From a virus (lineage: Duplodnaviria; Caudoviricetes): a stretch of DNA of 42,372 nucleotides. Both the position numbers and the translations under genes were made by a program. The number at the start of each line of letters is the position of its first letter. Position 1 is the stretch's first letter. Below are positions 4,290-13,731 of the stretch, in pieces. Where the stretch lies: IMG/VR virus record IMGVR_UViG_3300022742_000089, positions 1 through 42,372 of that record. One strand, 5' to 3'. The notes below the pieces were generated by a model. The model saw nothing but the letters and a program-made list of their open reading frames with translations. It did no database searches and was not told the DNA's origin.

Positions 4290-6116
4290 ATGCCGATCCC
4301 CGACACATGCATCAATGATAACCAGCTTTACGTCGCCCTGACCGGCAAGGGCGGGCTCGTCACGCCCATGCCCCTGCTGCTTCGCCGCGGCGCTGCAACG
4401 GTCGAGGCCTACGCCCGCCCCTGGGATCTGCCTTATGGCGCCTTCGGCCAACTGGTGCGCGACGAAATCGACCCCCTGTGGGGCGCACGCGATCTGGCGC
4501 CCGACGAATTCGACGATCTGGTCGACCTGATCAACGACCGCGATCCGGGCGGCGTCGAGCGCCCGCTGCACATCTTCGATCCCGAGGACATAAACGTCCG
4601 GAAGGTCCGGTGCCTCTATGACAGCCGCGCCAAGCTCAATGGCGGCCCACCTTCCATTGCCGACGTCTTGGACGCGATGTGGCTGGAGCTTGAGGGCACC
4701 GGAACCTTCTTCGCAGACATGAAGGAGCGCGAGGCGGCTGAGGCGGAAGAGGCGGAAACCGAAGACGCCGAATCGGTTCCCGCCCCGGCAGAGACCGCCC
4801 CCGAGGTGGCTGCGCCTCCGGTCACCACCCCCACCACTCCGCCTCACTCCGCCGTCCCAGCGCAGCCCATCCCCGCGCCCCAGCCGGCCGCCAATCCCCA
4901 GCCCAAGGGCAACACCCCCATGCAGCTCACCGTCGACAAGGGGCCGCTCCTGGCCGCCCTGAAGCGTGCCGTGTCGGTAGCCGGCAAGAAGACCACTATG
5001 CCGATCATCGAATGCGTCCTGCTCGATGTCGCCGGCTCCATCTTGACCCTGTCCGCCACCGATCTCGCTGTGGACATGCAGATCAAGGTCCCGGTCGCCA
5101 TGGACGCGCGTCCCGGCCGGCTGGCCGTCCCCGGCGCTGCGCTGGTCACGGCTATCGACGCCCTCCCTGATGGCGCCCAGGCCACCCTGGAGAAGACCGA
5201 CGACGCCCGCCTTCGCATCATGGCCAGCCGCACCCGCTTCCACGTCCCGACCATGCATCCGGACGACTTCCCGGCCTTCGCCATGGTCGACGGCTCGGAG
5301 GTTCGCGTGCAGGCGCAGGAGCTTAAGCGAGCTATCGACCGGGTGGCGTTCGGCATTTCCACCGACGACGTCGCGCGCCCCCAGCTGGCCGGCATGTTTC
5401 TCCACGCCCGTCCTGAGGGCCTGCGGGTGGTGGGAGCCAATGGACAGATCCTCTCCCGCTCGGACTTGGTGACCACCGCCCCGGCTACCGAATTCGTCCA
5501 GGCATTCTCGGAACCCGGCCGGCCGCAAGGCGTGATGATCCCACGTGATTCGGTTACTGCCCTCCGCCGCCTTCTGGATGCGGTCGACGGCGAAACCGAG
5601 GTGACCGCCATCATCGGCCGCAAGCGGGCCATCTTCGAGATGTTCCCGCTGCGCTTTGGCACCACCCTCTCCGCGGCGGAGTACATCGCCTACGAGGCGG
5701 TGCTGTCGCAGACCCTGGCGACGGCCAAGCGGAACTGGACCGTGCCGCGGGCTGGCCTGCTGGCGACCGTCCGCCGGGTGCGTGCCCTGGCGGGGGACAA
5801 GGGCCGCACGGTCGCCCTGACGGTCACTGGTGACGGGGTGCGCGCGGAGACGACCGTTCGCGAAAGTGCCACGGATGCCGTCGATATCCTGGAGGCGCCC
5901 ACCGGCCTTTGCGACGCCCCGATCGATATCGGGTTCGCCGCCGGTCACTTGGCCGCCGCGCTCGATTCCCTGAACGCCGGCACCGTCACCTGCACCATGA
6001 CCGACCACCTCCTGCCCACCTTCTGGCGGGCCGAACAGGAGGGGGACATCCTCGCGGCCGAACACCTCGTGGTGGTCATGCCGTTCCGTCTCGATCCGAA
6101 AAAGGCGGAGGCGTGA
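4290..6116 (+). CDS. dnaN: DNA polymerase III beta sliding clamp homologue with about 210-aa N-terminal extension
   Basis: From Met at 4920: MQLTVDK..LL..L...K.TMPIIECVLL, LSATDL, DDFP, AIDRVAFGISTDD.ARPQLAGM, IGF, and C-terminal VVMPFRL. The upstream in-frame domain is joined by an E/A/P-rich linker. Confidence 0.85.
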   Translation: MPIPDTCINDNQLYVALTGKGGLVTPMPLLLRRGAATVEAYARPWDLPYGAFGQLVRDEIDPLWGARDLAPDEFDDLVDLINDRDPGGVERPLHIFDPEDINVRKVRCLYDSRAKLNGGPPSIADVLDAMWLELEGTGTFFADMKEREAAEAEEAETEDAESVPAPAETAPEVAAPPVTTPTTPPHSAVPAQPIPAPQPAANPQPKGNTPMQLTVDKGPLLAALKRAVSVAGKKTTMPIIECVLLDVAGSILTLSATDLAVDMQIKVPVAMDARPGRLAVPGAALVTAIDALPDGAQATLEKTDDARLRIMASRTRFHVPTMHPDDFPAFAMVDGSEVRVQAQELKRAIDRVAFGISTDDVARPQLAGMFLHARPEGLRVVGANGQILSRSDLVTTAPATEFVQAFSEPGRPQGVMIPRDSVTALRRLLDAVDGETEVTAIIGRKRAIFEMFPLRFGTTLSAAEYIAYEAVLSQTLATAKRNWTVPRAGLLATVRRVRALAGDKGRTVALTVTGDGVRAETTVRESATDAVDILEAPTGLCDAPIDIGFAAGHLAAALDSLNAGTVTCTMTDHLLPTFWRAEQEGDILAAEHLVVVMPFRLDPKKAEA

Positions 6117-6385
6117 TGCGCTACACCCACCCCAATCCCCTCCGCAACGAACCTGAGGCCCAGGAGCGGCGCGGCGCACAGGACCTCTCCGCCCTCGTCG
6201 CCCATGCGCTGGCGAAAGGCGAGGCCTCCGTCAAGCCGGTGACCGGTCAGGACGTCCGGGAGAATGCCGAGCGGAACCGCAAGGCCTTGGCGAAGAAGCG
6301 CAGCCGAGCGGGTGCCCGTGGGGCCGAGGTGCGCGCCGCACAGCAGCGCGAAGCCGCCCGTCGGAAGGAGGCCGCCCGGTCATGA
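6116..6385 (+). CDS. Small basic hypothetical protein
   Basis: GGAGG RBS and TGATG coupling to the clamp gene; MRYTHPNPLRNE...; stop overlaps the next ATG. Confidence 0.6.
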   Translation: MRYTHPNPLRNEPEAQERRGAQDLSALVAHALAKGEASVKPVTGQDVRENAERNRKALAKKRSRAGARGAEVRAAQQREAARRKEAARS

Positions 6386-7479
6386 GCAATACCGACCCCA
6401 TCGCCGTCGTCTCGATATCCGGTGGCAAGGACAGCCTCGCCACGGCCCTGCTGGCAATTGATCAGTACGGCCACGACCGCTGCCGCTTCGTGACCGCCGA
6501 TACCGGCCACGAGCACGAGTTGACCATCGCTCACCTGTCCGACTACCTCCCGCGCCGGCTAAACATCCAGATCGACATCGTGAAGGCCGATTTCAGCGCC
6601 GACATAGCCCGAAAGCGGGTCTATGTGGCCGAGAAGTGGCTGGAGAAGCTGATCAACGGCAAGTCCGGCAAGTGGGTGCGCCTGGGCTCAGTTGAAGAGG
6701 ACGATGCCGAGCCGCCGCCCCCAGTCAACCCCTATCTCGGCTCTGTGATCGGCGGGTGGGTGTGGTCGGCAGCCATCCGACCGATGTCGGCCGAGGAGGC
6801 CGCCGAGGTGGTGGCACGCGCGCTGAGCGTTCTGCATCCCACCGGCATCCCCTTCTTGGACCTCTGCCTCTGGAAGGGCCGTTTCCCCTCCCGCAAGGCG
6901 CAGTTCTGCACCCAGCAGCTGAAGCGGTTCCCGCTGGACCGCTACATGATCGACCTCGCCAGCCAGGGCCACCGATTGGAAAGCTGGCAGGGCGTCCGCC
7001 GCGATGAAAGCCACGCCCGTCGGAATGCGGCCGAACGGGAGATGACCCCCGAGGGGTGGGAGATCGTCCGGCCCATCGTCACCTGGACCGCCCAGGAGGT
7101 GGTGGATTTCGTCCGCTCCCGCGGTATCGATCTGAACCCCCTCTACTCCCAGGGCTGTGACCGCGTCGGCTGCATGCTCTGCATCAACGCCGGCAAAGAC
7201 GAGATCGCCAATGCCGCCCGGCGCTGGCCGGAGCACATCGACCGTATTCGGGAGTGGGAGCGGCTGGTGGGCATGGCCTGCAAGCGGGGCTTCTCGACCT
7301 TGCTCCACCACGCCGGTGGCGAGGGTGGGGATGCTGAGCACGCTTATCGCCACAGCAACATCGACTCGATGGTCGATTGGTCCCGCACCGTCAGGGGAGG
7401 GCGCGTCTACGACCTGATGGTGCTGGCCGCGGATGCCGGAGGAGCGGTTTGCAGCTCCTCATACGGCCTGTGCGAGTGA
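6382..7479 (+). CDS. Phosphoadenosine phosphosulfate (PAPS) reductase family protein, phage type
   Basis: PP-loop SISGGKDS, ADTGHEH, KGRFPS..AQFCT..LK, GVRRDES..R, NPLY.QG.DRVGCMLC, and C-terminal CSSSYGLCE. Confidence 0.88.
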   Translation: MSNTDPIAVVSISGGKDSLATALLAIDQYGHDRCRFVTADTGHEHELTIAHLSDYLPRRLNIQIDIVKADFSADIARKRVYVAEKWLEKLINGKSGKWVRLGSVEEDDAEPPPPVNPYLGSVIGGWVWSAAIRPMSAEEAAEVVARALSVLHPTGIPFLDLCLWKGRFPSRKAQFCTQQLKRFPLDRYMIDLASQGHRLESWQGVRRDESHARRNAAEREMTPEGWEIVRPIVTWTAQEVVDFVRSRGIDLNPLYSQGCDRVGCMLCINAGKDEIANAARRWPEHIDRIREWERLVGMACKRGFSTLLHHAGGEGGDAEHAYRHSNIDSMVDWSRTVRGGRVYDLMVLAADAGGAVCSSSYGLCE

Positions 7480-10264: not shown

Positions 10265-10457
10265 CGCTGACCACCTCCCCGGACACACCGTCGTCGATCT
10301 CCATGACGGACGGGTCCGTCTGTCCTACCGCCGCCCCAACCTCGTCGCTCCGGACGAGTTCGTGCGGCTCCTCTACACGCCCGAGGCCGCGCTCGCGCTG
10401 GCGGCCGAGCTGACCGAGGTCGCGCGCACCGCCGTCGAAGGAGCGCAGACGTCATGA
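10257..10457 (+). CDS. Small hypothetical protein
   Basis: GGAGGT RBS before ATG 10257; stop overlaps the next ATG. Confidence 0.6.
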   Translation: MADADHLPGHTVVDLHDGRVRLSYRRPNLVAPDEFVRLLYTPEAALALAAELTEVARTAVEGAQTS

Positions 10458-11217
10458 TCGTTCGCGTCGGTATCCCCGCCTCGTTCCGCCGCTTCACAGC
10501 CGTGGCGGCCGAGATCAACGCGCCGATCCTCATCAGCGCCAACGCGCTGACCCGGCGCAATCTGGACTATTACCGGCCTCCGACCCACGCCATGCTGAAC
10601 GGGCGGCCCGCCGCCCTCGATAGCGCCGGCTTTGTCGCCACCAAAATCTATGGAGGCTATATCCAGCCTCGCGCCGCATATGTGGCGCTGGCCGGCTCCT
10701 ATGCCTGGGACTGGTGGGCGCAACGGGATTTCTGCTGCGAGCCGGAGATCGCCCGCGACCGCACCATTGTGCTTGAGCGGGTGGAATACACAGTTCTCGA
10801 ATTGGCTGAGTGCCGCCGCGAGGCTGAGGACCAAGGCGTCACCATGCCGATGCCAGTCCTTCAGGGTTGGCTCCCGGACGACTACAAGCTCTGCGCCGAC
10901 AAGATGGGCGATCTCCCGGCGCTCATCGGCGTGGGCGGGATGGTCTCCTCAACATCGTTGACGCGCTCGACTTTCACCTGCCGGCTCACGTCAAGCTTCA
11001 TCTCTTTGGGGTCAAGGGGCCGGCTATCACCGCCCTCCGCGGCCATCACCGCATCGCATCGGTGGACAGTCTCGCCTGGGATTACGCCGCCCGGCGGGAA
11101 AAGACCGGCTCCTGCACCATCGAGCATCGCAGCCATCACCTTCGCCGCTGGTACCTGGAACAGACGCGCGCTCTCGCGTGCCCTGGCTGGGGCTGGCAAA
11201 CCAACTTTTGCCATTGA
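10454..11217 (+). pseudogene. Frameshifted queuine-tRNA-ribosyltransferase/DpdA-like (deazapurine DNA modification family) gene
   Basis: Frame 1 carries ALDSAGF, DFCCEPEI, MPVLQGW.PDDY and LIGVG. The expected C-terminal motifs (DGLLNIVDAL...KLHLFGVKG...SVDSLAWDYAARR) continue in another frame from about 10939. Confidence 0.7.
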
Positions 11218-11225
11218 GGCACCTC

Positions 11226-12515
11226 ATGGTTGACCTGAAGCCCCGGCACCAGAAGGTGCTGGACGCCCTGCTGATCGGCGATCCTGCCGAGGTTGGGCTG
11301 AAATCCGCCGAGGTTGGCGCCAAGCTGGGCCTGACCTCCGGAAACGTCGGCCGCGCCCTCTACGACCTCTTGGAGGCGGGCCTCGTCGTCTATGCCGGTA
11401 CGGACGGGCATCGCCGCTACGCCAAGGCGCCCGCCACCCAGGCGCTGACCCCCGCCACCACCGAGCCCCAGGTTCGCGCCCCGGCCGCCCCGGAAATCCC
11501 CCCGCTCGTCCTCGATCAGGCCGCCGGCAACGCCTGGAACCTCTACAACGCGGACTGCGTCTCCTTCGCTCGCAACCTGCCGGACAACAGCGTCGATCTG
11601 GCCGTCTACAGCCCGCCGTTCAGCAACCTCTACGTCTACTCCGAATCGGTTGCCGATCACGGGAACTGCGCCACCGATGCCGAGTTCTTCGACCACTACC
11701 GGCACCTCGTTCGTGAGAAGTTCCGCGTCCTCCGCCCTGGCCGGCTGACGGCGATCCACGTCAAGGATCTGGTCTACTACCAGAACAGCAGCGAGGACGG
11801 CTCCGCCGGTCTCCGAGCCTTCTCCGACGGCTGCACCAAGGTTCATCAGGAGGAAGGCTTCACCTTCCACTGCCGGATCACGATCTACCGCGATCCCGTG
11901 CTGGAGCGGGCGAAGGCCAACCCCCATGGCCTGCTGTGGAAGACCTTCCAGGGCGACTCCAGCTTCTGCCGGGTCGGTATGCCCGAGTACCTGATGGTCT
12001 ACCGGAAGTGGGCCAAGCCGGGGGAGGAGGATCTCGTCCGACCGGTCACCCACCCGAAGGCCATGGTCCCGCTCGCCCGGTGGCAGGATCTCGCCTCTCC
12101 CGTCTGGCGGACCAACGACATCGACCTGTGGCTGCCCTACGGCGATCCGCGCGCCACCCCGCATTCCCAGGTCTGGAACCTTGAGGAGCCCGGCCGCGGT
12201 GATGGCGACCTGTCGACCACCGACGTGCTGAACGTCGCGGTCGCCAAGGACGACCGGGCCGAGCGGCACCTCTGCCCCATGCCCCTGAACATCACCAAGC
12301 GCGCCCTGGAGCTGTACACGAACAAGGGAGACGTCGTGTGGTCCCCCTACGCCGGCATCGGATCTGAAGGCGTCTCCGCCCTGTCCATAGGCCGCAAGTT
12401 CATCGGCACCGAACTGAACTCGACCTACTTCCGCCAGGGCGCCAAGTTCCTCTCCGAGGAGGAGAAGCTCAGCGCCTACGGGTCGCTCTTCGATCTGGTG
12501 GAGGCATCATGGTGA
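11226..12515 (+). CDS. Beta-class amino DNA methyltransferase (N4-C/N6-A) with N-terminal winged-HTH
   Basis: Motif IV YSPPF precedes motif I SPYAGIGS; also HLCPMPL and GRKFIGTEL. N-terminus KVLDAL...SAEVGAKLGLTSGNVGRALYDLLEAGLV is wHTH-like. Confidence 0.88.
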   Translation: MVDLKPRHQKVLDALLIGDPAEVGLKSAEVGAKLGLTSGNVGRALYDLLEAGLVVYAGTDGHRRYAKAPATQALTPATTEPQVRAPAAPEIPPLVLDQAAGNAWNLYNADCVSFARNLPDNSVDLAVYSPPFSNLYVYSESVADHGNCATDAEFFDHYRHLVREKFRVLRPGRLTAIHVKDLVYYQNSSEDGSAGLRAFSDGCTKVHQEEGFTFHCRITIYRDPVLERAKANPHGLLWKTFQGDSSFCRVGMPEYLMVYRKWAKPGEEDLVRPVTHPKAMVPLARWQDLASPVWRTNDIDLWLPYGDPRATPHSQVWNLEEPGRGDGDLSTTDVLNVAVAKDDRAERHLCPMPLNITKRALELYTNKGDVVWSPYAGIGSEGVSALSIGRKFIGTELNSTYFRQGAKFLSEEEKLSAYGSLFDLVEASW

Positions 12516-13354
12516 AGGCGATCAAGGGGGTTGGGTCGCTCTTCGACCGCCCGCCGCCCACCCCGACCGAAACCCTTTCCCGGCTGACCGCCCAGGCCGC
12601 CGCCGGCACCCTCTCCATCCAGGACATCCCCGGCTGTGAGACCGCCAAGCGGGCCATGGAGATCGCCGCCATCGGCAACCACCCCGCCGCGTTGATGGGG
12701 GAGACGGATACCGATCGGCACCTCCTCGGCCTGCTCGCGATTGCCTTCCTGCAGTCCGGGGTGCCGGTCACGATGGTGTCCCCCGCTGACGAGCCGGAGA
12801 TCGCGGTTTACCGTGCCATCCCCGACGTAGACTTCATGCTCCCGCCGCCGGCCGAACGGACCGCCAGCCTCATCGCCCGGATCGCCGCGACCAAGCCCCG
12901 CGTCGCCGAACTACATGTGGATCATCTTGCCCGGCATCTGCTGGACGAAGGGAAGCTCCGCGGCGTCATCGGCGAGGCCGGCCAAGCGAGGGTTATCCGG
13001 GTTGCCCACACCATCGCCGCGATGGACGGCGCTCGGATGACCATCCGGCGGCATGTCGCGGAAGCGCTGTCCTACGTCTACCCCTTCGCGGACAGTGCTC
13101 CCCCGGTCGACTTCCTGCCCATCAATACCGCGCCGCGGGACGGCACCGTCATCGAGGTCGCCGCCTTCGACAGCAAGGGTCAGCTGGAAGCCTCTGCCGA
13201 CATGCGCTGGCGGGACGATACCACAAACGGTCTTTTCTCTGGCGTCGTCGGCTTCTGGATCACGCCCGACTGGCCCGGCAGCGATTCCCTCACCTGGAAC
13301 GAATCCGATCCCGACGCCGCGCCCACGCACTGGCGCCCCGTCCGGACGAACTGA
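12509..13354 (+). CDS. ComM/YifB (Mg-chelatase-like)-derived protein lacking the AAA+ core, fused to a phage P..TAPRDGT domain
   Basis: DIPGCETAKRAMEIAAIGNH..LMG, LPPPAE.TA..IARI and RVIRVAHTIA.MDG.....HVAEALSY match ComM segments. No Walker A or B motif is present. Confidence 0.7.
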   Translation: MVKAIKGVGSLFDRPPPTPTETLSRLTAQAAAGTLSIQDIPGCETAKRAMEIAAIGNHPAALMGETDTDRHLLGLLAIAFLQSGVPVTMVSPADEPEIAVYRAIPDVDFMLPPPAERTASLIARIAATKPRVAELHVDHLARHLLDEGKLRGVIGEAGQARVIRVAHTIAAMDGARMTIRRHVAEALSYVYPFADSAPPVDFLPINTAPRDGTVIEVAAFDSKGQLEASADMRWRDDTTNGLFSGVVGFWITPDWPGSDSLTWNESDPDAAPTHWRPVRTN

Positions 13355-13365
13355 GGCATCCCGAC

Positions 13366-13731
13366 ATGACGAACACCCAACATCCCCAGGCGCTGGCCGC
13401 CACATCTGGCGGGCAACGCCACAGCTCTGGCGGCTGGAACCGGAACATCCCGCCGGCCCGCAAGTACCCTGTCATCTTCGCCGGTCGGAACAAGCACGTC
13501 TGCCGCCTCATCACGGACGGCATGACGGACGAGGAGGTGGAGGCAAACGCCAACCTCATCGCCGTCGCCCCCGACATGCTGGCCACGATGGACGAACTGG
13601 CTCGCGCCGTCGCGCATTACACCCCCAGCCCGGCCGCAATGCCTCTCGCCAGCCTGGAGTGGCAGCGTATCGGCCGCGCTTTGACCGCCGCTCGCGATGT
13701 CATCGCCAAGGCTACCGGGGGTGCGGCATGA
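13366..13731 (+). CDS. Hypothetical phage protein
   Basis: EANANLIAVAPDMLA and A...IAKATG, a common phage motif; GAGG RBS. Confidence 0.75.
   Translation: MTNTQHPQALAATSGGQRHSSGGWNRNIPPARKYPVIFAGRNKHVCRLITDGMTDEEVEANANLIAVAPDMLATMDELARAVAHYTPSPAAMPLASLEWQRIGRALTAARDVIAKATGGAA

Follow-up and report, generated by a model that had tools for sequence, protein, structure and literature searches.

A prophage-borne ComM derivative without its motor: a possible DprA decoy against natural transformation

Introduction

The 42,372-base virus record IMGVR_UViG_3300022742_000089 (G000), the entire length of which is referred to as the window, carries a gene that encodes a core-deleted derivative of the transformation helicase ComM (mini-ComM), which raises the question for what purpose a phage might maintain such a protein. 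It has long been asked whether natural transformation is retained in order to rid genomes of parasites, and to our knowledge the counter-measures known at its recombination step comprise one small RNA besides gene disruptions. A direct test is offered by a virus-enriched family of motor-less ComM proteins under selection, since only a single small gene is involved, the target surface can be named and the assays are simple.

Predicted architecture of mini-ComM

The uninterrupted open reading frame is divided into the following parts:

12509-13354, + strand: mini-ComM gene, 281 aa; core-deleted ComM derivative with a fused 90-aa tail
12608-12700 (aa 34-64), + strand: pre-Walker-A helix and first ComM strand, D-I-x-G-x-E-x-AKRA-x-EIAA-x-G-x-H
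12701-12799 (aa 65-97), + strand: dead P-loop (ETDTD), one helix and a short strand in place of the ATPase core
12800-12904 (aa 98-132), + strand: last AAA+ strand, LPPPAE and a long helix with the conserved R124
12905-13078 (aa 133-190), + strand: Mg-chelatase-C helical domain, the region where DprA docks in ComM
13079-13354 (aa 191-281), + strand: TAPRDGT tail, faster evolving

A first-pass annotation made from the sequence alone had claimed similarity to ComM, and this was borne out by the following comparisons. Mini-ComM matches the YifB family TIGR00368 (E 2e-6; 26.5 bits, below the 362-bit cut-off), Legionella ComM (8rxd; E 8e-4) and, in both cases below the Pfam cut-off, Mg_chelatase (aa 37-72; E 0.002) and Mg_chelatase_C (aa 135-189; E 4.5e-5). 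It scores 64.6 bits against a full-length ComM profile, compared to at most 2.3 bits among 1000 shuffles, while the profile of the mini family matches the ComM AAA+ region with a probability of 99.95 (E 1.4e-38) and a single long internal gap. According to the profile and structure comparisons homology to both the AAA+ and the Mg-chelatase-C regions is kept, the aa 34-64 block being the most conserved of the family.

The same annotation was also right about the motifs. GETDTD (aa 64-69) is found where ComM has GPPGSGKS, LPPPAE, which is shared with alphaproteobacterial ComM, spans aa 111-116, and the last residue of HVAEALSY is aa 189. Judged by these positions, approximately 130 residues of Azospirillum ComM are gone between the P-loop and LPPPAE and a further 28 or so before the C-terminal helices, together with the entire N-terminal Lon-like domain, so that the missing core and N-terminal domain described before are confirmed; the AAA+ segment begins after just 33 aa. 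Both Walker motifs are lost, the region of Walker B being deleted, and H2i, the sensor-3 arginine, the PS1-beta hairpin and the zinc finger are absent as well. The counterparts of Legionella R316 and R463 and of the DNA loops H2i and PS1-beta are deleted or substituted, and A157 occupies the position of the trans-acting arginine of LSARG. These comparisons identify mini-ComM as a ComM/YifB derivative that lacks the motor and the DNA-binding parts. A colinear alignment with LLDE as Walker B was rejected, since LPPPAE and the helices behind it align to ComM 397-503 by both profile and structure.

The fusion to a phage TAPRDGT domain, to which the first-pass annotation had drawn attention, does exist but is incidental. 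The tail matches no Pfam or PHROG family and is a separate gene of 84-92 aa in other Azospirillum records. When residues 195-281 were searched alone, the matches were proteins of 84-92 aa with 70-73% identity, three of the five being named Azospirillum records. Fusion was detected in three close orthologues only; P0003 and most minis have no tail. The tail is a local fusion of adjacent early genes.

Selection and predicted fold

The first 190 residues are predicted to adopt a confident fold (pLDDT 93-98). The orthologues are P0002 (80%) and that of the Azospirillum prophage L001 (85%), and codons 1-190 compared with the latter yielded a dN/dS of 0.17 (bootstrap 0.09-0.28; dS 0.31, dN 0.052), a value resting on one sequence pair. 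The same comparison gave 0.39 for the tail and 0.07-0.44 for nine neighbouring genes. Three near-identical viral copies of a different mini gave 0.22-0.31 from few changes. Codon comparison thus reveals mini-ComM to be kept under purifying selection, on which the first-pass annotation had made its proposal depend.

Distribution of the mini-ComM family

A three-sequence profile searched against 1.84 billion cluster representatives gave 1113 matches at E <= 0.001, the best 150 of which were examined. A protein was counted as a mini if it contained the N block and the C block within a span of less than 250 aa and no Lon domain. By this rule 104 of the best 150 matches were minis, 31 had full AAA+ domains and 15 were other proteins. 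The stretch equivalent to ComM 198-503 covers 102-244 aa in the 104 minis (median 170), compared to 306 in ComM. Among 106 minis (the 104 together with P0001 and P0002), GxxxxGK[ST] was present in 36, a Walker-B-like motif in three, the CxCG zinc finger in 30 and a PPP-type motif in 56. Deletion endpoints and motif loss differ widely, and the outer Mg-chelatase-C module is the part common to all; it is the one retained module to which more than 100 clusters (50% identity) have converged.

Three mini clusters of the ESM Atlas (142, 94 and 133 members; 198-216 aa; both Pfam pieces) are 65-83% viral among the members with a record. In IMG/VR a mini was located on 16 of the 49 distinct contigs retrieved, representing 12 distinct types; comM on the other contigs was of the host type, either full or interrupted. 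Four of the 12 viral mini loci have genes that are hallmarks of phages (terminase, portal, tape measure, DNA polymerase with primase), and no constant partner gene was found among 128 selected neighbouring open reading frames of these loci. Minis are also embedded in larger proteins, such as a mobile-element protein combining ArdC-N, a metallopeptidase and a mini (P0170), a protein of 2759 aa with InPase, mini and PRTase (P0125) and one of 5885 aa (P0179). The deleted architecture, for which further examples had been sought, is therefore recurrent, occurring in 104 of the 150 best profile matches and on the 16 viral contigs.

The family was not reached by every search. Single-sequence searches gave no matches in IMG/VR, INPHARED phages or plasmids, and the three-sequence alignment none in IMG/VR, where viral minis were reached only with broader alignments. 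In the alignment of the zinc-finger subgroup, conservation was too low in every stretch for a scan. Other minis as queries detected two compact full-span matches in INPHARED (MT838397.1, MT835774.1), and among plasmids only full-length or split ComM-type matches; no mini was present in BFVD. In a tree of 60 rows (30 of 89 well-filled minis and 30 of 77 full ComMs) the LPPP-type minis nest with alphaproteobacterial ComM, the columns of that motif being part of the tree. An AU test for independent origins did not reject a single mini clade (p 0.55). Literature searches, where most subscription papers fell outside coverage, found no description of a motor-less ComM family. By these sequence comparisons mini-ComM belongs to a large, virus-enriched and apparently undescribed family of motor-less ComM derivatives.

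Two polypeptides of 531-549 aa (P0163, P0228) each comprise two tandem mini-ComM units. Furthermore, three host-like ComM sequences with clean internal core deletions (P0015, P0216, P0171) are possibly recent intermediates or assembly errors.

Bacterial genomes and comM-splitting elements

The host of the prophage is likely to be Azospirillum or close kin, because the related prophage L001 resides in Azospirillum sp. B2RO_4 (G001), with blocks of 78-91% identity across the early region. An intact mini was found in one of 69 genomes of the genus. A class-level search of 401 genomes, with a strict threshold and seven candidates scored per genome, gave the match in G001 and a C-half match in G275.

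In genome G005, comM is split at codon 385 by a 74-kb Tn7-like element encoding TnsA, a TnsB-type transposase, TniB and TniQ (G005:C1, approximately 2885856-2959170; L114-L117), which has TG..CA ends and a 5-bp duplication. A close relative of the window mini, frameshifted and split by an insertion, is located inside its left end. This single case fits a function that becomes redundant once comM is disrupted. The comM halves are 50-70 kb apart or on separate contigs in four further genomes (G026:C55, G042:C44, G052, G061), and comM-splitting elements therefore recur in the genus; no mini was found in these four. In addition, comM is cut at about codon 345 in 17 loci on 15 IMG/VR contigs (L185-L191, L195, L196, L201-L203, L205-L207, L209, L210), likely because a single family of elements integrates at this site.

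A role in complementing an insertion-truncated ComM was ranked low, as comM is intact in G001 and, of the five genomes in which comM is split, only one has a mini, which is broken. Likewise, mini-ComM was rejected as an attachment-site or insertion remnant of comM: it is located 12 kb inside the prophage and not at an element end, and the orthologue shares about 44-46% identity with Azospirillum ComM in two matched blocks instead of being near-identical. Minis could also be captured comM remnants that decay slowly and have no current function. The variable deletion endpoints and motif loss, the broken Tn7-borne copy and the ability of comM-inserting elements to generate fragments are in line with this explanation, but the dN/dS of mini-ComM lies inside the range of the neighbouring phage genes, and the convergence on one module and the confident predicted fold also speak against it. 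It is highly improbable and largely refuted by selection.

Potential role in the inhibition of natural transformation

According to one report (10.1101/2024.10.21.619469), the winged helix of DprA docks on the Mg-chelatase-C domain of ComM to load the helicase, and this contact is required for branch migration. Dataset S1 of its PNAS version shows that Bacilli have neither ComM nor the winged helix of DprA. Mini-ComM, which keeps this domain, would occupy the winged-helix domain of the host DprA as a decoy, and the real ComM would then stay unloaded on transformation D-loops. In a transformable host such a competition would lower transformation, and incoming DNA with the empty site would then be less able to remove the element. 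We infer each of these steps, from DprA binding to protection from curing, and tentatively favour mini-ComM as a DprA-sequestering decoy, a reading that the retained domain makes plausible though not yet probable.

The first-pass annotation had proposed that mini-ComM poisons ComM rings, which would mean that it is built into the hexamer during assembly as an inactive subunit and there stalls or caps the ring. An anti-transformation purpose remains the most likely one, whereas ring poisoning is less supported. The ComM monomer assembles on DNA with ATP (10.1101/147660) and is hence open to poisoning; the outline of the AAA+ scaffold is kept, and the 36 of 106 relatives with Walker A could hold nucleotide at one interface. 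However, the parts that build and drive the ring, including the Lon hexamer scaffold, both DNA loops, Walker B and the trans arginines, are deleted or decayed, and the retained Mg-chelatase-C domains make no mutual contacts in the ComM ring (PMC11612176). Ring poisoning thus seems rather unlikely, and sequestering of DprA fits better because the retained domain is the DprA docking site.

Several observations nevertheless weigh against a DprA decoy. The likely key DprA-contact position is hydrophobic in 91 of 104 relatives, but the putative equivalent of L455 (V. cholerae ComM) is G152 in the window mini, with the register uncertain by one residue (V153); P0003 has a methionine there. The putative equivalent of R497 is non-basic, likewise in Azospirillum ComM. 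The invariant mini residues may be structural only, and their conservation is partly circular because the collecting profile is weighted to those blocks. The Mg-chelatase-C segment, with 15 silent codons and 8 replacements, is not under stronger selection than the rest of the domain. Some carriers resemble autonomously replicating phages (L129), which would therefore gain less from blocking curing, and minis are rare in bacterial genomes (intact in one of 130 of the order). The Walker A motif kept by one third of the minis would be superfluous for a pure decoy.

Alternatively, the docking surface might be used for the benefit of the phage, recruiting or retargeting DprA or YraN to phage DNA so as to protect or recombine it, or neutralising a DprA-based defence, instead of inhibiting transformation. 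Mini-ComM lies in an early, replication-side gene run in the window and the L129 mini beside DNA polymerase and primase; in P0170 the fusion partner is ArdC-N, and ArdC is reported to travel with entering DNA. Some anti-phage systems, among them ShosTA, include DprA-like proteins. However, mini-ComM has no DNA-binding loops to tether a partner on phage DNA, and the lack of a constant partner gene at the 12 viral loci argues in the same direction, so we consider this role unlikely. A further candidate is the sequestering of another ComM partner, either the nuclease YraN or an additional one. Two-hybrid assays showed binding of YraN to ComM, with which it shares a pathway (10.1101/2024.02.06.579203), and the conserved, exposed-type residues K200, R201, E204, R410 and Y503 could form another surface. 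Since DprA is the only partner mapped to the retained domain in the sources as available, such a target appears distinctly unlikely.

Extended to the whole family, the decoy reading would imply that phages, conjugative elements and transposons across several phyla repeatedly cut the host ComM down to its DprA-docking module, giving lineage-matched decoys against the recombination step of transformation; we put this forward as a possibility that falls short of likely. If true, this would represent the first case of a transformation helicase being mimicked by a protein, and it would directly indicate that the DprA-ComM pathway defends the genome and has to be countered by viruses. Should mini-ComM bind DprA, it would provide a genetic tool separating the DNA-protection role of DprA from its ComM-loading role and a marker of hosts with an active pathway.

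Gene neighbourhood and prophage

The surroundings of the mini-ComM gene comprise:

351-425: tRNA-Val, prophage insertion site
351-42372, + strand: lambdoid prophage, sitting after tRNA-Val
11178-12515, + strand: HTH-N6/N4 DNA methyltransferase, upstream of mini-ComM
12500-12504, + strand: ribosome-binding site GGAGG within the 3' end of the methyltransferase gene

The mini-ComM ATG is located 4 nt downstream of GGAGG and overlaps the methyltransferase stop at 12513-12515, in agreement with the open and coupled reading frame described earlier; a DNA methyltransferase is the upstream neighbour in the Azospirillum orthologue, too. The prophage further encodes AlpA, a beta clamp, PAPS reductase, an SNF2 helicase, a DpdA-like protein, GapR and a replication protein, as well as lysozyme, capsid, portal and gpA terminase. 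The relative in G001 adjoins tRNA-Lys instead of tRNA-Val. The mini-ComM gene is not an assembly artefact, because contigs from two runs of separate studies, one of them possibly the source, span it without a differing letter. In one RNA-library run the coverage of the region was complete and even in depth, a pattern expected of DNA.

The window starts with the 3' end of a gene resembling HU, as recognised by eye, and its 30-base piece 380-409 recurs on another contig in sequencing run X2, which is likely the other attachment site. The beta-clamp homologue (4290-6116) has an N-terminal extension of 210 aa. The PAPS reductase and DpdA-like (queuine tRNA-ribosyltransferase-type) genes of the early region are located at 6382-7479 and 10454-11233, respectively. 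The latter may be frameshifted, since its match ends near aa 183 and a second frame overlaps (10867-11217); it is absent from the alignment with the G001 prophage. A phrog_1273 protein (13366-13731) is encoded directly downstream of mini-ComM, and the family is also found close to the minis of L130 and L178, which probably reflects nothing more than its frequency in early regions.

Comparison with known systems

Mini-ComM shares ancestry and the fold of the retained segments with ComM/YifB (TIGR00368; PF01078 and PF13335; Legionella 8rxd/8rxt), including the pre-Walker helix and the C-terminal Mg-chelatase domain. Unlike ComM/YifB, it has no Lon domain, P-loop, Walker B, zinc finger, DNA loops or trans arginines; it is a third as long, is carried by a phage and exists alongside the intact comM of the host.

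The mini also occurs as a domain next to ArdC-N, MPTase, InPase and PRTase and in this resembles components of the polyvalent proteins of phages and conjugative elements (PMC5512222); chelatase, YifB and ComM do not occur in the main text of that source, its supplements being outside this count. The comM-disrupting elements AbaR/Tn6022 and Tsy (PMC10293859) likely share the target pathway of the mini and inactivate comM by insertion, whereas the tRNA-Val prophage would act in trans. The Tn7-like comM-disrupting element in G005 carries the broken mini-ComM.

The mobile-element inhibitors of transformation (Prx, ComI, RocRp, Rok-LS20, Aqs1/Tip, IdeA) compiled in the 2025 review PMC12378983 act on regulation, the pilus, the uptake machinery or DNA. 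Its Table 2 lists no protein acting on DprA or ComM and, unlike the mini, no inhibitor described there as a cut-down enzyme of the target pathway. The mini is likewise encoded by mobile elements (prophage; 16 viral contigs) and probably serves the same purpose. It is not a member of the ComM helicases, and most likely works like a mobile-element inhibitor of transformation.
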